Part shown: positions 3,905 through 52,433 of the stretch, piece by piece
Layout: every line of letters begins with the position of its first letter
Numbering within the stretch: position 1 is the stretch's first letter
NCBI GenBank assembly: GCA_964588505.1
Contig: CAZPPQ010000001.1
Location: forward strand, 1 to 58,715
Origin: an uncultured Gammaproteobacteria bacterium
Lineage (GTDB): Bacteria; Patescibacteriota; Patescibacteriia; UBA9934; GWF2-40-263
Reading direction: 5' to 3'
DNA: 58,715 bases
Program-made: the position numbers and the translations under genes
The notes under the pieces: generated by a model
Told to the model about the DNA's origin: nothing
Databases searched by the model: none
Seen by the model: only the letters and a program-made list of their open reading frames with translations

Positions 3905-4065
3905 GGGATCTCTGCAAAAGTCCATTTCAGGATGAAAGCGAGGAATGTTTTCCGGATGCGAGGAAGGATTCCGGAAATGATATCGCCATATCATTGAGGA
4001 ATCCTGACGACGCAGCCGGAAAACATAACCGCTTTCAGGCCGGAAGCGACTTTTGCAGAGGTCCC
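3905..4065 (+). repeat. F1 long-hairpin (MITE/RPE-like) element, copy A, 161 nt
   Basis: 18-nt terminal inverted repeats gggatctctgcaaaagtc / gacttttgcagaggtccc. Nested internal pairings: gaaagcg/cgctttc, atgttttccgg/ccggaaaacat, aggattcc/ggaatcct, atgatat/atatcat. 160/161 identical to the copy at 34202. Confidence 0.85.
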
Positions 4066-5630: not shown

Positions 5631-6796
5631 TGAGGAGGGATCCCATTTTTTTGTATCGTATGGCCCTCCACCGAACATGGATTGAGCTCGACGAGCGGGC
5701 TCTTGCTGGAAACATTGCGACATTGCGACGGCTATCTCCGGAAGCCCGTTTTTGCGCTGTGATCAAAGCAAACGCCTATGGGCACGGAATAAAAGAGATC
5801 GCGCAAGTGGCTTCGCGGAACGGCGTGGATGCGTTCGGCGTCGACCATATTGACGATGCGTTATTTTTGCGCGCGATTTTTCCTGGCGCTTTGGTGTTGG
5901 TTCTCGGGTATACGATGCGCGATCGTTACGCCGAGGCGATCGCCGGACACATTGATTTGACGGTTTATGACGTGGAGGCGATCAAGGCTTTGGAATCCGA
6001 AGCGCTTAAGCGGGCAGGGACCGCTCATATTCATCTGAAAGTTGAGACCGGAACGGCCAGACAAGGGGTGCCGCAAGAATTTTTACCGGACATATTAAAA
6101 ACGATCGCTTCGTGCTCTCATATAAAACTTGATGGACTTTCCACACATTTTGCCACGATTGAAAATACATCCGACACACACTTTGCGACGCAACAGGTTT
6201 TCCGTTTCAGAGAAGCGGAACGGATCGCGCGCTTAATGGGATTTTCTCCAAAATGGATTCACTGTGCTTGCAGTGCAGCCATTATTCTGTATCCGGATAC
6301 ACATGGGACGATGACACGCGCCGGCATTTCGATGTACGGTATATGGCCTTCGACGGATGTGGAAATCTCCGCAAGAAAAAATCTCATCAAATGCGATTTG
6401 GCTCCTGTTCTCACATGGAAGACACGCATCGCGCAAGTGAAATCCCTCGCGGCAGGAACGCCGATCGGATACGGACTTACCGAATCCCTCAAACGTTCGA
6501 GCCGCATCGCTGTCATTCCGGTCGGATATTTCGACGGCTACGATCGCCGACTTTCTTCAATCGGCGAGGCACTTGTGTCCGGCCATCGGTGCAAAGTGAT
6601 GGGACGCATATGTATGAATATGATGATGATTGATGTGTCCGAAGTACCGAACATCGGTCCGGAACAAGAAGTGATCCTCATCGGACGGAGCGGCAGGCAC
6701 GCCGTGACATTCGAAGAGCTCGCGCAAAAAGTCGGGACCATCCCTTACGAAATTCTCACGCGCATCAATCCGCTCTTGCCGCGAATTTTGGTATAA
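5630..6796 (+). CDS. alr: alanine racemase
   Basis: PLP-lysine motif AVIKANAYGHG. ATG at 5630 overlaps the lysS TGA (TGATG); the track start at 5627 is a TTG. Confidence 0.9.
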   Translation: MRRDPIFLYRMALHRTWIELDERALAGNIATLRRLSPEARFCAVIKANAYGHGIKEIAQVASRNGVDAFGVDHIDDALFLRAIFPGALVLVLGYTMRDRYAEAIAGHIDLTVYDVEAIKALESEALKRAGTAHIHLKVETGTARQGVPQEFLPDILKTIASCSHIKLDGLSTHFATIENTSDTHFATQQVFRFREAERIARLMGFSPKWIHCACSAAIILYPDTHGTMTRAGISMYGIWPSTDVEISARKNLIKCDLAPVLTWKTRIAQVKSLAAGTPIGYGLTESLKRSSRIAVIPVGYFDGYDRRLSSIGEALVSGHRCKVMGRICMNMMMIDVSEVPNIGPEQEVILIGRSGRHAVTFEELAQKVGTIPYEILTRINPLLPRILV

Positions 6797-13144: not shown

Positions 13145-13179
13145 AAATCCCTAAATCCCTAACTCCCTAGAGCCTTTAG
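13145..13179. repeat. octamer array, CTANNNCC orientation (inverted relative to 12205-12248)
   Basis: aaatccctaaatccctaactccctagagcctttag, immediately 5' of the GT26 gene. Confidence 0.85.
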
Positions 13180-13206: not shown

Positions 13207-13235
13207 TTGACTTTTCCAAATTAGCACTCTATCAT
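13207..13235 (+). promoter_or_regulatory. sigma70-type promoter of clpB
   Basis: TTGACT, 17-nt spacer, TATCAT. The -10 hexamer lies inside the CIRCE spacer. Confidence 0.6.
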
Positions 13236-13247
13236 AAGGAGTGCTAA
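13221..13247 (+). promoter_or_regulatory. CIRCE operator (HrcA binding site)
   Basis: Exact match to the consensus TTAGCACTC-N9-GAGTGCTAA: ttagcactc tatcataag gagtgctaa. Confidence 0.9.
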
Positions 13248-13260
13248 GAAGAACTTACAG

Positions 13261-13286
13261 GTGATAGGTGTGAGCTTATAGCTTAT
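13261..13286. repeat. octamer units gtgatagg/gcttatag flanking F2 copy A (left)
   Basis: gtgataggtgtgagcttatagcttat read directly. Confidence 0.6.
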
Positions 13287-13447
13287 GGGGCTGTCGCCGA
13301 ATGTGCTTTTGAAGCGAAATGGCTGAATTTCGAGACAGAATCGTTGAATAAATTTTGAGGTTTATCAGTAGATAAGCCGAAAAATTTTGAAACGATTATG
13401 ACCGAAATTCAGACATTACAGCCAAAATGACATTCGGCGACAGACCC
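13287..13447 (+). repeat. F2 long-hairpin (MITE-like) element, copy A, 161 nt
   Basis: Terminal inverted repeats ggggctgtcgccgaatgt / acattcggcgacagaccc. Internal pairings ctgaatttcg/cgaaattcag and aatcgtt/aacgatt. About 93% identical to the copy at 21912. Confidence 0.85.
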
Positions 13448-13472
13448 TTTATAGGAAAAAAAGGAGAATTTT

Positions 13473-13506
13473 CTCCTATAAGCTATTCCCTATAACCTAT
13501 AAGCTT
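13473..13506. repeat. octamer array cctataag/ctattccc/ctataacc (right flank of F2 copy A)
   Basis: ctcctataagctattccctataacctataagctt read directly, 16 nt before the clpB ATG. Confidence 0.75.
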
Positions 13507-13521
13507 GTCCCAACATCTATT

Positions 13522-16185
13522 ATGATGCCTAACAATTTCACTTTAAAATCCCAAGAAGCTCTTCAGCAAGCGCATTCCATCGCGCTTGAAAACGGCCAGC
13601 AAGCCATGGAACCGATCCATTTGCTCGCTTCCCTGCTTGATCAAGAGGACGGCGTCGTTGCCGCGATCGTGAACAAAATTATGGGAAATGTCGGCGAGTT
13701 GCAGGATCGCGTGCGCCGCATCCTCGGATCTCTTCCGCAGGTCGAGGAACTCTCCGGCGGCTTGGGCCAGCTCTATCTTTCCCCGGATACAGTTTCTGTT
13801 TTAACACAAGCCGGAAAAAAAGCAAAACAATTTCATGATGAATTCATCTCGACTGAACACTTGCTTCTTGGTTTGATGACAAACAAAGCTGTCGGGCATT
13901 TGCTCGAAGGGTTTACGCTCACAGAGGAGACGGTGATGCGCGCACTCAAAGATATTCGCGGAAACCAGCGCGTGGATTCGCAAGAGCCAGAGTCGCGCTA
14001 TCAGGCGCTCGAACGCTACAGCAGAAACCTCACGGATGCCGCGCGTGCCGGAGAGCTTGATCCGATTATCGGTCGCAATATGGAAATCCGCCGCGTGATG
14101 CAAGTGCTTTCGCGCCGCACAAAAAATAATCCGGTTTTGATCGGCGAAGCCGGAGTCGGAAAAACCGCAATCGTCGAAGGTCTTGCGCAACGCATTGCCG
14201 CAGGCGATGTTCCTGAATTATTAAAGGAAAAGAAAATCGCCTCTCTCGATATCGGGGCCATGGTCGCCGGAACAAAATTCCGCGGCGAATTCGAAGAACG
14301 CCTCAAGGCCGTGATCAAAGAAGTCGAAGAATCAAACGGCAAGATCATCCTTTTTATTGACGAACTCCACACACTCGTCGGTGCCGGCACGACCGAGGGC
14401 GGCTCCCTGGACGCGAGCAATATGCTGAAGCCGGCTTTGGCGCGCGGCAAGCTTCATACGATCGGCGCAACGACCATAAAGGAATATCACAAGCACATCG
14501 AAAAAGATCCGGCTTTTGAACGCCGTTTCCAACCGGTTTTGATCGAAGAGCCGAGTCTTGAGGACACGATCGCCATCTTGCGCGGCATCAAGGAAAAATA
14601 TGAGGTTCATCACGGCGTGCGCATCAGCGACCCTGCCATTGTTTCCGCGACCGAACTCTCTTCGCGCTACATCGCGGACCGTTTCCTACCTGATAAGGCG
14701 GTTGATTTGATTGATGAGGCCGCGTCGGCCATGCGTATGGAGATTGATTCGATGCCCGAGGATCTGGATAAGTTGAAACGCGACGTGACGCGCCTAGAAA
14801 TCGAACGCAAGGCTATGCAAAATGAGGAAGACAAGGAATCCAAGGTGCGGCTCAAAGAGATCGAAAAATTGCTCGCGAACCTGAAAGAAAAAGCCGACGC
14901 GCTCGAAGGCAAATGGAAAAATGAAAAAGAAAAGATCACGGAAATCCAGACGCTGAAAGGCTCTATGGAAAAAATGCGCGGCGAAGCCGAGTTGGCTGAA
15001 CGCCGCGGGGATTTGGAAGCTGTGGCGAAAATCCGTTATGGAACCATCCCGGCCGAAGAGAAAAAACTCCATTCTGCGGAAAGTGCGCTGACAAAACTGC
15101 AACACGACCGCGGCATCTTGAAACAGGTCGTGACGGAAGAGGAAGTCGCGAGCGTTGTTTCGCGTTGGACGCACATTCCGGTCTCCAAAATGCTCGAATC
15201 CGAATTAAGCAAATTGGCGCGCATGGAAAATGAATTAGGCAAACGAGTGGTCGGACAAAACGAAGCCATCAAAGCCGTGAGTAACGCACTCCGCCGTTCG
15301 CGGGCAGGAATTGCCGAAGAGAACCGGCCGATCGGATCGTTCATTTTCCTCGGCCCGACAGGCGTTGGAAAAACCGAACTCGCTCGCGCACTGGCCGAAT
15401 TTATGTTCAACGACGCGACGGCGCTCATCCGACTTGATATGTCCGAGTATATGGAAAAACACGCCGTATCAAAAATCATCGGTTCGCCGCCAGGATATGT
15501 GGGGTATGAAGAAGGCGGCCAACTGACGGAAATCGTGCGGCGCAAACCGTACAGCGTGCTGTTGTTCGACGAAATTGAAAAAGCACATCCGGACACGTTT
15601 AACGTCCTTCTTCAGATTTTGGACGAGGGGCATCTGACGGATGCCAAAGGCCGGCGCGTGAATTTCAAGAACACGGTTATTATTATGACAAGCAACATCG
15701 GCTCGGACATCATCCTGAACGCCGGAAAAGAAATGACCTCCATTGGATTTTCAAAACTGTCGGAAGCGAAATCAAAGGATGAAGAAATCCGCGAACGGAT
15801 CTTGGGTATGCTGAAGGATCACTTTAAGCCCGAGTTTTTGAACCGCGTGGACGAAACCATTGTGTTCCATTCACTTACTGAAGAAAATATCGGAGAAATT
15901 GTCGAGCTTCAGCTTGAGCGCGTTTCCGTGCGTCTCAAAAAACAGCGCGACATCGCAATCAGCGTTACGCCTGCGGCGAAAAAATTGTTGGCGCAAAAAG
16001 GCTTTGAGCCCGCGTACGGCGCCCGTCCGTTGAAGCGCGTGATCCAATCTCTTATTCTCGACCCGCTCTCGATGAAAATCATCACCGGCGAAGTCCGCGA
16101 GGGGCATCAGGTTGAAATTGAAGAAAAAGAAAATGAAATTCTGATCGGAGAAAAACGAAAAACTCGGATATTGGCTCATGCCTAA
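13522..16185 (+). CDS. clpB: ATP-dependent chaperone ClpB
   Basis: 887 aa with two AAA+ modules ([16 protein letters not shown]) and a middle coiled-coil domain. The stop TAA lies inside a cctaacgc repeat unit. Confidence 0.95.
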
Positions 16186-21429: not shown

Positions 21430-21912
21430 ATGGCCATTCTCCCGATTCTCAAAGAACCGAACGAAATACTACGACAGATCGCAAAGCCTGTTTCTCTTGA
21501 CGATCTCGCGAAACCCGAAATACAAAACGTATTGGATGATATGGTCCATACCATGCATGTCGCGAAAGGGATCGGGCTTGCGGCGCCGCAAGTCGGCATA
21601 TCAAAACGGCTGATTGTGGTTTTGATGGGCGAGAAGCCGCGGATTTTTATCAATCCGGAAATCATTTCTTCGGCTTTCCGCAAAGTGGAAAGCGAGGAAG
21701 GATGCCTCTCGGTCCCTGGCGTGTTCGGGATCGTCAAACGAACACGCGGTGTTGAAGTCAAAGCGCTGGATCGCAACGGAAAATGCGTCACGGTAAAAAC
21801 GAACGGATTGCCGGCGATCATTTTTCAGCACGAGATTGATCATCTGAACGGAACACTCTTTATCGATAAAATAGAACGGCTTACCGAACACCACGAAACA
21901 GAAACGTTATAG
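21430..21912 (+). CDS. def: peptide deformylase
   Basis: Motifs GIGLAAPQ, EEGCLSVPG and QHEIDHLNG. ATG 21430 (MAILPIL...) was chosen to avoid overlap with the upstream gene. Confidence 0.9.
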   Translation: MAILPILKEPNEILRQIAKPVSLDDLAKPEIQNVLDDMVHTMHVAKGIGLAAPQVGISKRLIVVLMGEKPRIFINPEIISSAFRKVESEEGCLSVPGVFGIVKRTRGVEVKALDRNGKCVTVKTNGLPAIIFQHEIDHLNGTLFIDKIERLTEHHETETL

Positions 21913-22073
21913 GGGTCTGTCGCCGAATGTGCTTTTGAAGCGAAACGGCTGAATTTCGAGATAGAATCGTTGAATAAATTTTGAAGTTTATCAGGAGATA
22001 AGCCTAAAAATTTTGAAGCGATTATAGCCGAAATTCAGACATGGCAGCCAAAACGACATTCGGCGACAGACCC
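21912..22073 (+). repeat. F2 long-hairpin element, copy B, 162 nt
   Basis: ggggtctgtcgccgaatgt...acattcggcgacagaccc, flanked by tata on both sides. Sits between def and fmt. Confidence 0.85.
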
Positions 22074-22098
22074 TATAGACCCTTTTATAAAATATCTT

Positions 22099-23034
22099 AT
22101 GAAAATCGTCTTTTTCGGAACACCAAAGTTTTCTGTGCCGTTCTTTTCCGAACTTCTGCGCACACCCGGGATCGAAATTGCGGCCGTTGTCACCCAGCCG
22201 GATAAACCGGCCGGCCGGCATCATGACCTCACGGCATGCCCGATCAAAGAGCAGGCCGTCGAACAGAATATCCCGGTTCTCCAACCGGCAAAATTGAAAG
22301 AGGAATCCACGATCGCCGCTTTGCGCGATCTGCAAGCGGAACTGTTCGTCATCGTGGCCTACGGAAAAATCATCCCGCCGGCCGTCCTTGCATTGCCGCG
22401 TCTCGGATGCGTCAACCTGCATCCGTCGCTCCTTCCGAAATACCGCGGTCCGTCTCCGATCCCCTGGGCCATTGCTGAAGGCGACAAAGAAACTGGCGTC
22501 TCCGTCATGTTGATTGACTCCGGGATGGATACCGGCCCTTTACTTGCACAAAAAATATTCCAGATCGAAAAAATGGAAACAGTCGAAAGTCTCGTACGAA
22601 AAATTCACGACATAGGCCCGAGCTTTTTGGCGGAAACGATCCTTTCCTATGCGGCCGGAACCGCAAAGCCCGTTCCGCAACCGACCGAAGGCACGTCCGT
22701 GACACATCTGCTCGAACGCGAAGACGGACGCGTGAAATGGAATCTTTCGGCCGAGACAATCGAGCGTCAATTTCGCGCGTACCATCCGTGGCCAGGGCTT
22801 TGGACTGTTTGGCTACGCAATGGAAAGCCGATCCGCCTCAAACTACTCAAAATATCTGTCGAAAACGGCTCGCTTCCGCCGGGAAAAGTGGAAGCGAAAG
22901 CCGACCATCTGCTGGTCGGCGCGAAAGACAAACTTATCCGGGTTGTTGAACTTCAAGCTGAAGGATCTTTACCGACCGATGCGGCAAGGTTCATCCGTGG
23001 GCACGCGGACATGGCCGGAACGACATTCGTCTGA
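22099..23034 (+). CDS. fmt: methionyl-tRNA formyltransferase
   Basis: 311 aa with the formyltransferase motif NLHPSLLPKYRG and the C-terminal Fmt domain. Confidence 0.9.
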   Translation: MKIVFFGTPKFSVPFFSELLRTPGIEIAAVVTQPDKPAGRHHDLTACPIKEQAVEQNIPVLQPAKLKEESTIAALRDLQAELFVIVAYGKIIPPAVLALPRLGCVNLHPSLLPKYRGPSPIPWAIAEGDKETGVSVMLIDSGMDTGPLLAQKIFQIEKMETVESLVRKIHDIGPSFLAETILSYAAGTAKPVPQPTEGTSVTHLLEREDGRVKWNLSAETIERQFRAYHPWPGLWTVWLRNGKPIRLKLLKISVENGSLPPGKVEAKADHLLVGAKDKLIRVVELQAEGSLPTDAARFIRGHADMAGTTFV

Positions 23035-31902: not shown

Positions 31903-32002
31903 TTAGGTGATAGCTTAGAGGTGATAGCTTATAAAAATTGGCTCATAAAAGCGATAAAAAATCTCCTATAAACTATAAGCTATAAGCTAAAACCTATAAG
32001 CC
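31903..32002. repeat. inverted octamer arrays (ggtgatag/gcttatag ... cctataag/ctataagc)
   Basis: ttaggtgatagcttagaggtgatagcttataa, then a spacer, then ctcctataaactataagctataagctaaaacctataagcc. The last unit supplies the alaS stop codon (minus-strand gcttatag). Confidence 0.8.
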
Positions 32003-34201: not shown

Positions 34202-34362
34202 GGGATCTCTGCAAAAGTCCATTTCAGGATGAAAGCGAGGAATGTTTTCCGGATGCGAGGAAGGATTCCGGAAATGATATCGCCATATCATTGAGGAATC
34301 CTGACGACGCAGCCGGGAAACATAACCGCTTTCAGGCCGGAAGCGACTTTTGCAGAGGTCCC
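34202..34362 (+). repeat. F1 long-hairpin element, copy B, 161 nt
   Basis: Identical to copy A except one A-to-G change, which turns an A:T stem pair into G:T (G:U in RNA). Ends 11 nt from the murJ stop. Confidence 0.85.
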
Positions 34363-47629: not shown

Positions 47630-48706
47630 GTGTTCTCTTGGAAATCCGCCGAAAAACCGATCGTTGCGCTTTCGCCAATGGCTGATATGACAGATTCGGC
47701 GTTTTGTCGCGTGGTGAAAGAAGTCCTTCTTGAAGTCGACAACCAACAAAGCCCCTCGACTCCGGCCGGCTCTGCCGGCCTTCGCTCGGGGAATAAAAAT
47801 CCTACAAGCTACCAGCTACAAGCTACAAGCTTCCCGTTGATTTTTCGCGAAATGATCTCGTCCGAAGCGGTCGTGCGCAAAAATAAAAAGACGCTCGCAA
47901 TGGCCGAACTCCATCCAAGCGAGCGACCAATCATTCAACAAATTTTCGGGGGGGATCCGGAAGTGATGGCCAAAGCCGCTCGGGAAATCGAAGAGACATT
48001 CTATCTAGACGGCATTGACATCAATATGGGATGTCCTGTGTATAAAATCGTCTCAAACTTCAATGGCGCGGCGCTGATGAAAGAGCCGGCGCGCGCGGCG
48101 CAGATTGTGCGCGCGGTGAAAGCCGTTGTCTCTGTTCCTGTCTCGGTGAAAATCCGACTCGGATGGAACGATCCGAACGAGTGCGTCGCGTTCGCAAAAG
48201 TGTTGGAAGCCTCTGGAGCGGATGCGATCGAGGTGCACGCGCGCACAAAAATGCAAGGGTATTCCGGAAAGGCAAACTGGGCGCAAGTTGCAAAAATAAA
48301 ACGGGTAGTTTCGATTCCTGTGCTTGTGAACGGCGACATTGTTTCAGGCGCGACCGCGCTTGAGGCGCTTGAAAAGAGTGGGGCGGACGGCGTTTTAATC
48401 GGCCGTGGGGCTTTGGGAAATCCGTGGATTTTTTTGGAGATAAAACAAGCGATAAAAGATATGTCCGATAGGTCTTATAAGACCTATCGGACATATCAAC
48501 CGCTTGCAGAACGTCTCCATGTTATCCGCCGCCATTTGGAATTGCATTGCGAACAATACGGCGAGCGCGGCGTCGTGACATTCCGCAAACATCTCGGCTG
48601 GTACTTCCGCGGCCTGCCGCATGCAAAAGAAATCCGCGAACGATTGTTCGCGGCAAAGACAAGAGAGGAATTGATCGCAGCCCTCGACCGAGGCGACGAC
48701 CCTTGA
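47630..48706 (+). CDS. tRNA-dihydrouridine synthase
   Basis: GTG start. Dus motifs ALSPMADMTDSAF, DINMGCP, VKIRLGW and GRGALGNPWIF. Carries two repeat-derived in-frame insertions. Confidence 0.9.
   Translation: MFSWKSAEKPIVALSPMADMTDSAFCRVVKEVLLEVDNQQSPSTPAGSAGLRSGNKNPTSYQLQATSFPLIFREMISSEAVVRKNKKTLAMAELHPSERPIIQQIFGGDPEVMAKAAREIEETFYLDGIDINMGCPVYKIVSNFNGAALMKEPARAAQIVRAVKAVVSVPVSVKIRLGWNDPNECVAFAKVLEASGADAIEVHARTKMQGYSGKANWAQVAKIKRVVSIPVLVNGDIVSGATALEALEKSGADGVLIGRGALGNPWIFLEIKQAIKDMSDRSYKTYRTYQPLAERLHVIRRHLELHCEQYGERGVVTFRKHLGWYFRGLPHAKEIRERLFAAKTREELIAALDRGDDP
47752..47832 (+). repeat. in-CDS insertion: GC-rich hairpin + aataaaaat + heptamer array (ctacaag x4)
   Basis: cccctcgactccggccggctctgccggccttcgctcggggaataaaaatcctacaagctaccagctacaagctacaagctt encodes ...SPSTPAGSAGLRSGNKNPTSYQLQATSF..., which is absent from the usual Dus N-terminal region. 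Confidence 0.65.
48458..48497. repeat. perfect 40-bp palindrome of five 8-nt units inside the dus CDS
   Basis: gatatgtc cgataggt cttataag acctatcg gacatatc. I verified that it equals its own reverse complement. Encodes DMSDRSYKTYRTY. Confidence 0.95.
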
Positions 48707-52353: not shown

Positions 52354-52433
52354 GGCTTATAGCTTATAGGAATTAGCTTATAGGAATTGATAATTAACCG
52401 TTTTCTATCCTATAAGCTATAACCTATAAGCTT
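52354..52433. repeat. inverted octamer arrays (gcttatag/gaattagc ... cctataag/ctataacc)
   Basis: ggcttatagcttataggaattagcttataggaatt, 18-nt spacer, atcctataagctataacctataagctt. Fills the gap between the two genes. Confidence 0.85.

Follow-up and report, generated by a model that had tools for sequence, protein, structure and literature searches.

The stretch of DNA analysed here, a window of 58,715 nt, carries two near-copies of a 161-nt sequence that folds back on itself from end to end, one ahead of clpB and one between def and fmt. What kind of element is this family, which we call F2, how did it come to occupy these two sites, and what moves it? With a probability of about 0.8 for the explanation as a whole, we propose that F2 is a MITE family of Patescibacteria, that its transposase is supplied in trans, and that it shares a common scaffold with F1, a second hairpin family in the window.

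The two copies differ at 12 positions over 161 nt (92.5% identity), close to the 93% reported in the first-pass annotation of this DNA, and both are real; a repeat search of the window returned them untrimmed as 13284–13451 and 21910–22077, at 92%. Each copy forms a single end-to-end hairpin, as that annotation had described. Folded as RNA, copy A reaches −76.1 kcal/mol (z −13.3) and copy B −72.6 kcal/mol (z −11.1), with 0 of 200 shuffles as good in either case, and DNA folding of copy A gives −52.1 kcal/mol (z −14.6). The terminal inverted repeats (TIRs), first put at 17–18 nt, are genuine and 17 nt long, and the 14-mer CTGTCGCCGAATGT has four exact occurrences in the window, which are the four ends of copies A and B (Table 1). 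The start first assigned to copy B, 21912, is one base too far left, as G21912 belongs to the target TATAG and to the def stop codon. Two stem changes between the copies were read correctly at the outset: C50:G114 of copy A becomes T:A in copy B, a compensatory change, and one A:T pair becomes a G:T wobble. The remaining nine differences include four that disrupt pairs and five at unpaired positions, and the A/B comparison alone is thus little proof of selection on the stem.

Copy A does lie within a gcttatag/cctataag hairpin, as was also noticed, and these octamers are members of a separate motif, AGCTTATAGG. With one mismatch allowed, this 10-mer has 17 matches in the window against about one expected, and at three places between genes (13273–13505, 31912–32002 and 52361–52432) it is arranged in inverted arrays spaced by 7 or 14 nt. 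Copy A interrupts the centre of one array, and AGCTTATAGG is a short repeat independent of F2.

Table 1. Positions of F2 and F1 copies in the window, with their ends and target-site duplications, and of three serine recombinase genes in other loci.
Feature	Source	Position	Strand	Remarks
F2 copy A	window	13287..13447	+	full-length hairpin MITE, 161 nt; clpB 5′-UTR
Copy A left target-site duplication	window	13282..13286		CTTAT; 4/5 bases equal to right side
Copy A right target-site duplication	window	13448..13452		TTTAT
Copy A left TIR	window	13287..13303	+	GGGGCTGTCGCCGAATG
Copy A right TIR	window	13431..13447	+	CATTCGGCGACAGACCC
F2 copy B	window	21913..22073	+	161 nt; between def and fmt, exactly at def stop codon
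Copy B left target-site duplication	window	21908..21912		TATAG; includes def stop codon TAG
Copy B right target-site duplication	window	22074..22078		TATAG; perfect match to left
Copy B left TIR	window	21913..21929	+	GGGTCTGTCGCCGAATG
Copy B right TIR	window	22057..22073	+	CATTCGGCGACAGACCC
F1 copy a	window	3905..4065	+	shared scaffold, different 12-nt sub-terminal box, 4-bp duplications
F1 copy b	window	34202..34362	+	AATA on both sides
Serine recombinase paralog	L004	94-1620		
Serine recombinase paralog	L011	480-2042		
Serine recombinase paralog	L052	148-1054		

Beyond the window, F2 is a repeat family. One genome per prokaryotic species was scanned for exact matches to two 12-nt cores lying 112–142 nt apart, which yielded 85 stretches, all in Patescibacteria-type MAGs. 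The hosts comprise Magasanikbacteria, Kerfeldbacteria, Falkowbacteria, 'Azambacteria', Parcubacteria and unclassified 'Patescibacteria group' MAGs, together with two MAGs that carry the label Gammaproteobacteria (label as given). The host of the window is itself a Patescibacterium, with an Fmt nearest to Uhrbacteria-labelled proteins, and the host range of F2 appears to be specific to Patescibacteria. Using an HMM made from 83 oriented copies (alignment A3), an nhmmer census counted 113 full copies and 35 partial ones, distributed over 21 MAGs. The richest, a Magasanikbacteria MAG, contains at least 43 full copies plus 20 partial ones within 215 kb of examined sequence, and a second contains 33 full and 9 partial copies in 143 kb. 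Nearest-neighbour identity of copies within one MAG reaches 98.8–99.4%, and contig ends often fall inside copies.

F2 elements have no ORF of their own beyond spurious read-through and usually span 160–164 nt from GGGnC to GnCCC, bounded in all copies by a conserved 17-nt TIR, GGGnCTGTCGCCGAATG, whose position 4 covaries as A:T, T:A or G:C. Several relatives carry the same substitutions at both termini: three in L078 (5830–5990; GGGCTTATCACCAAATG), one in L048 (7028–7188; GGGGCTGCCGCCGAATG), and matching changes in a 147-nt relative in L023 (7212–7358; GGGGCTCCGGTGAAT). Given these variants, the 12-nt core looks invariant partly because only exact matches to it were searched for, and the true family is wider than that search recovered. 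Internally deleted 'minis' of about 76–80 nt keep both ends (L076 125–205 and L016 ~5712–5790), and the L076 example has its own perfect ATTAT duplication, which suggests that minis may retain mobility. In some Magasanikbacteria copies the two arms derive from different subfamilies, and these chimeras fold more poorly; as they persist with mismatched arms, an inserted copy evidently needs no hairpin to persist.

The flanks of the copies provide the mark of insertion. A 5-bp direct repeat lies flush outside GGGnC...GnCCC and is perfect in 37 of 80 copies, compared with 1.5% for permuted flanks, while at least four of the five flank bases match in 51 of the 80. The signal exists only at n = 5, and is gone at the other lengths from 2 to 9 or when the boundary is shifted by 1–2 bases. 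The duplicated pentamers are direct rather than inverted, include non-palindromic examples without TA (TGCAG, AGTGT, ATGGT and TTGAA), and conform to a target consensus W-T-W-A-W in which A/T makes up 86–92% per position against a background of 56%. Duplication quality showed no relation to copy age. This survey of flanks, proposed in the first-pass annotation as a check on its own suggestion, therefore finds a consistent duplication and, with the census, supports F2 as a MITE-like mobile element with terminal inverted repeats. The 'tata' described on both sides of copy B is present there, but it is incomplete, the full repeat being the 5-bp TATAG/TATAG.

The def–fmt junction preserves the state before insertion in related genomes. 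In the three nearest relatives found (L093–L095), whose Fmt proteins are 75–76% identical and whose gene order is likewise Memo-PriA-Def-Fmt, the ends of def and fmt share 4 nt with no spacer, a comparison of presence versus absence only, as relatives at ~70% nucleotide identity are too diverged for base-by-base reconstruction. The empty junction in all three identifies copy B as a derived insertion, which now keeps the two genes, once overlapping, at a distance of 186 nt. A search inside and at the edge of copy B found no consensus for a promoter or a terminator, and fmt presumably needs read-through across a −73 kcal/mol hairpin. At its other end, fmt overlaps the 3′ end of a convergent downstream ORF by 82 nt (22953–23034), an arrangement that is conserved in the relatives (L093 3858–3939, L094 3230–3311 and L095 2464–2545).

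Copy A occupies the region between the promoter/CIRCE segment (13207–13247) and the clpB start at 13522. A perfect CIRCE operator (13221–13247, TTAGCACTC-N9-GAGTGCTAA) stands upstream of clpB and is overlapped by a promoter-like TTGACT-17-TATCAT (13207–13235, +), and as a sequence match it implies putative HrcA-type heat-shock control of clpB in this Patescibacterium. Lying 40 nt downstream of CIRCE and ending 74 nt upstream of the clpB start, copy A should belong to the heat-shock-regulated clpB leader in the sense direction. From position, transcription of F2 is plausible both in this leader and in the def–fmt spacer, and F2 may affect the expression of clpB or fmt. Copy A is fixed in this strain across five independent groundwater assemblies, with ClpB preceded by the same 377-nt upstream spacer. 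F2 is also found upstream of clpB in two further MAG lineages (L068 2812–2975 and the L078 variant at 5830–5990); the positions and orientations differ, indicating independent insertions, and the recurrence may be coincidence or target preference. On the other side of this intergenic region, a run of CCCTAA-like heptamers (AAATCCCTAAATCCCTAACTCCCTA, 13145–13170) lies directly upstream of the start of a divergent gene for a WecG-family glycosyltransferase.

Across the family, F2 lies in divergent intergenic regions 24 times and in convergent ones 6 times, compared with a background of 83 to 77; this excess is the only positional signal that proved robust, and it fits the AT-rich target preference. 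An apparent orientation bias, with the upstream gene opposite in 53 cases versus 25, dissolved into this enrichment, and tandem contexts gave 16 sense and 24 antisense copies, which is not significant; all of these counts come from crude ORF-based gene calls in which fmt is mis-called.

Together, the defined ends, the fixed duplication, the empty orthologous site, the minis and the near-identical copies define F2 as a MITE, with a repeat family and a target preference to match. MITEs carry TIRs and a target-site duplication but no transposase, and the length of the duplication mirrors that of the parent IS (PMC6382973). We took as a MITE any short element of ~50–600 bp without a transposase gene, a range that includes F2. 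Bacterial MITEs such as MITEAba12, ERIC/IRU, Correia, RUP and Nezha were compared with it, and it resembles MITEs in being short, non-coding and multi-copy, with TIRs and a fixed-length duplication, as well as in its AT-rich intergenic targets, its potential for a long hairpin and the expectation of a parent transposase in trans (PMC6382973). F2 differs from them as a distinct sequence family with Patescibacteria hosts, in its 5-bp duplication (9 bp in MITEAba12), in that no co-resident parent IS was identified in the loci examined, and in its full-length complementarity and strand asymmetry. Searches of the literature for its terminal motifs and for MITEs in CPR bacteria turned up no description of F2, only chance primer matches and arthropod mites; the family is new, and the kind of element well known. 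Scored against Rfam 15, the window gives only a tRNA at the gathering score, with no match to F2, and permissive thresholds applied to F2 return generic miRNA hairpins only (one of them scores 40.6 bits where the threshold is 195). A known structured RNA family was rejected on the lack of a match at the gathering score.

All F2 copies fold end to end, with ~65 pairs and a mean of −79.5 kcal/mol. A covariation analysis, which the first-pass annotation had also suggested, was run by laying the structure of copy A, with 63 pairs, on alignment A3. Standard pairing is found in 87.9% of cells, versus 34–53% when partners are slid by 1–3 columns, and 36 of the 63 pairs have changed on both sides. The covariation score is 0.217. 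Shuffled alignments give 0.107, with none of 500 attaining the score observed, and slid partners give no more than 0.081. The stem thus covaries, and its complementarity is kept far past the ~25 nt expected for transposase binding.

The two strands of this hairpin are not equivalent. RNA parameters make the + strand of the window, and the strand homologous to it elsewhere, the more stable one in 82 of 84 copies, with a mean advantage of ~11 kcal/mol; DNA parameters do so in 81 of 84. Unpaired bases of the better-folding strand are 71% purine, and 73 of 83 copies share a conserved U:G wobble. F1 has a similar asymmetry, with a median of 84% purine among unpaired bases and the same homologous strand favoured in 41 of 50 copies. 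Such asymmetry may go back to a small number of master copies, or may be the result of selection acting on one strand.

F1 provides the closest comparison for F2. A metagenome scan for F1 yielded 104 stretches, mostly in high-GC contigs that are not CPR-like, with a median contig GC of 63% versus 43% for F2 and ~50% in the window. The presence of F1 in high-GC contigs as well as in a CPR window hints at a very broad host range or at horizontal transfer. Its flush duplication is 4 bp, perfect in 47 of 94 copies against a null of 3.3% (loci L096–L199), with CTTG, CAAG, CTGG, TTAA and TTAG common and an overall YNNR-like pattern. The F2 HMM matches the interior of some F1-type copies (nhmmer, E=2.5e-8 for L109), and in alignment A6 the bridging copies L109, L108 and L129 have F1 ends (GGGAC-CTCTGCAAAAGT-C) around an F2-like core (GCTTTyG.AGCGA...ATTTCGAG...GTTTA-loop-TAAGC...GCCGAAAT...CAG..GAAATG).

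F1 and F2 are therefore homologous, and the initial statement that they share no sequence is wrong at the level of the families. Their equal length and GGG...CCC ends reflect common descent, as the bridging copies indicate. Both families have the scaffold GGGnC + 12-nt box + C + GCTTTyG/CATTTC + hairpin core, a length of 161 nt and strand asymmetry, while 8 of the 12 box positions differ and a 4-bp YNNR-like duplication in F1 stands against a 5-bp WTWAW duplication in F2. A common mobilisation mechanism, once suggested for the two, holds only loosely, as the differing duplication lengths imply different transposases; F1 and F2 share ancestry, not an enzyme. Within high-GC contigs, F1 also recurs inside one imperfect palindrome, CCCTGCGCCCTTG / F1 / CTTGCGCGGGAGG, in both orientations (L103, L110, L112, L115, L119 and L131), which suggests that it is nested in, or targeted to, another repeated element.

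The partner transposase was sought in blocks of up to 8 kb around F2 copies. No transposase gene flanked by F2 ends was found in ~0.7 Mb of F2-bearing loci, nor any kilobase-spaced pair of F1 or F2 ends in all loci. Solo F2 ends in these loci are half-copies, ~76-nt deletion minis or degenerate copies, and their neighbours are housekeeping genes, among them those for MiaA, RNase HII, ribosomal proteins L1 and L25 and RF-1. Clustering of 1002 ORFs, with Pfam assignment of those that were recurrent or adjacent, returned housekeeping proteins and a large serine recombinase, with no transposase partner among them; the recurrent proteins near F2 are PpdK-like proteins, ABC transporters, ATPases and this recombinase. 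The recombinase (Resolvase + Recombinase + Zn-ribbon) occurs as three diverged paralogs in one Magasanikbacteria MAG (Table 1). An F2 copy follows those of L004 and L011 within 40–170 nt, and that of L052 is internally deleted and pseudogene-like, with no more than a weak F2-type end in its vicinity. None of the three paralogs has a TIR on its far side. Scans of viral contigs gave two chance matches for F2 ends and zero for F1 ends, and BLAST against a plasmid collection found neither family. Duplications of 4 bp and of 5 bp both occur in IS701/ISAba11, ISH3 and IS1380, and by analogy groups of this type would be a better fit to the F1/F2 pair.

The duplication also bears on which parent F2 could have had. 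The origin first proposed, from an IS630/Tc1-mariner-type parent that duplicates TA or TATA, is suggested by the TATA(G) flanks of copy B and by the AT-rich targets, and is hardly credible given a duplication of 5 bp, pentamers that often have no TA, and flush repeats at n = 2 in 20% of copies against a null of 17.6%; such an origin is excluded by the 5-bp length. The ends of the IS1016 group (IS1595 family), GGGgctg, resemble the terminal GGGGCTG of some F2 copies. This group makes direct repeats of 7–9 bp (PMC12561309), and derivation of F2 from it is excluded by the 5-bp duplication and by flush repeats in 0 of 80 copies at n = 7–9. We consider it improbable that F2 belongs to the TIMEs, MITEs of Tn3-family origin that a TnpA of this family moves replicatively. 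Tn3-type inverted repeats (IRs) carry an inner TAAG motif, which is present in 0 of 168 F2 ends. The canonical Tn3 IR, checked in at least 5000 plasmids, does agree with 9–10 of the first 12 nt of F2 ends (P~0.001, as a single comparison), but only in a register shifted by 1 base, the true register falling below the null. As in F2, direct repeats in the Tn3 family and TIMEs are AT-rich and 5 bp long (sometimes 6 bp) and the termini are G-rich, features that point towards this family as the parent, and TIMEs form long RNA stem-loops that can adjoin gene ends (PMC4133298, PMC13367494), with energies of −70 to −115 kcal/mol (PMC4133298). TIMEs are nevertheless ~256–262 bp long, inhabit Proteobacteria and end in ~38-bp IRs homologous to those of Tn3-family transposons, whose TnpA mobilises them, whereas F2 measures 161 bp, inhabits CPR bacteria and has a conserved end of ~25 nt. 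The 4-bp duplications of the sister family F1 contrast with the 5 or 6 bp of the Tn3 family, and no Tn3-type transposase or res site was seen in F2 loci.

Other readings place the hairpin, rather than the ends, at the centre. F2 could be an immobile cis-regulatory or terminator hairpin, or a REP/PATE-type element of an HUH enzyme (RAYT, IS200/IS605), as long stable intergenic hairpins and the lack of a transposase in F2 loci would allow; both forms are very improbable in view of the flush 5-bp duplications, the unrelated neighbour genes and the absence at the orthologous site. F2 has no intrinsic-terminator tail and no Rfam match, and its perfect TIRs and 5-bp duplication leave strand asymmetry as the sole resemblance to HUH-dependent elements, which have a sub-terminal hairpin recognised on one strand and are not known to make a target duplication. 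The MITE explanation has difficulties of its own. No autonomous partner appears among F2 loci, plasmids or viral contigs, and a plain model of TIRs in double-stranded DNA needs no full-length complementarity and leaves the one-strand folding (82/84) and the purine-rich unpaired bases unexplained. Strand-specific selection on a hairpin scaffold with interchangeable boxes, acting on a structured RNA or on a single-stranded DNA hairpin during transposition, is compatible with mobility, and we hold it to be possible, although on the unlikely side. It would account for the bias towards one homologous strand and for purines in both families, for covariation well past the termini with a conserved U:G wobble, and for a core common to families with different boxes, and both window copies are, by position, sense-oriented within transcribed regions. 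The absence of a gene-sense bias in tandem contexts and the persistence of chimeras with mismatched arms argue against it; the asymmetry may come through shared ancestry from a few master copies, and the purine measure is partly biased by taking the strand that folds better. Templated quasi-palindrome correction can also maintain the complementarity of the arms without selection. Bolder, and in our view distinctly improbable, is the idea that the hairpin is a strand-specific module, re-armed with different boxes and driven in Patescibacteria by an unrecognised transposase family. Serving as a single-stranded DNA hairpin in transposition or as a processed RNA, such a module would have been re-armed at least twice, with a 4-bp stagger in F1 and a 5-bp stagger in F2, and an unrecognised transposase would explain why no partner is visible beside dozens of young copies in genomes of ~1 Mb.

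For F2 as a MITE, we envisage the following model. A transposase supplied in trans, presumably of DDE type with cut-and-paste or copy-and-paste chemistry, would bind both ends of the element and insert it at AT-rich W-T-W-A-W pentamers through 5-bp staggered cuts, and repair of the stagger would leave the 5-bp direct repeat. Insertions would build up in intergenic DNA, with a preference for divergent promoter regions and with either orientation tolerated. In the window, one F2 would have entered the clpB leader, and the other would have struck the def stop codon, which lies within the left TATAG, so that the duplication restored the stop. The ancestral scaffold of F1 and F2 would have consisted of GGGnC, a 12-nt box, C-GCTTTyG and the hairpin core, with box and duplication length diverging later, presumably together with the transposases.

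At the copy density of the richest Magasanikbacteria MAG, F2 is a major source of assembly breaks and spurious ORFs in the tiny, streamlined genomes of Patescibacteria, and its terminal motif and HMM offer annotators a simple mask. Its insertions, such as those into the heat-shock leader of clpB and between def and fmt, two genes that normally overlap, are possibly a source of regulatory change. A scaffold shared by F1 and F2, with different boxes and duplication lengths, is a naturally occurring case in which to study the change of a MITE from one transposase to another, and the partner transposase, if found, would show which transposases act in CPR bacteria.

Two further repeats of the window stand apart from both families. 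A tandem array of a 12-nt unit occupies its start (1–335), with at least 19 registers at 60–90% identity, and a perfect 40-nt palindrome without a spacer (GATATGTCCGATAGGTCTTA / TAAGACCTATCGGACATATC) is located at 48458–48497.
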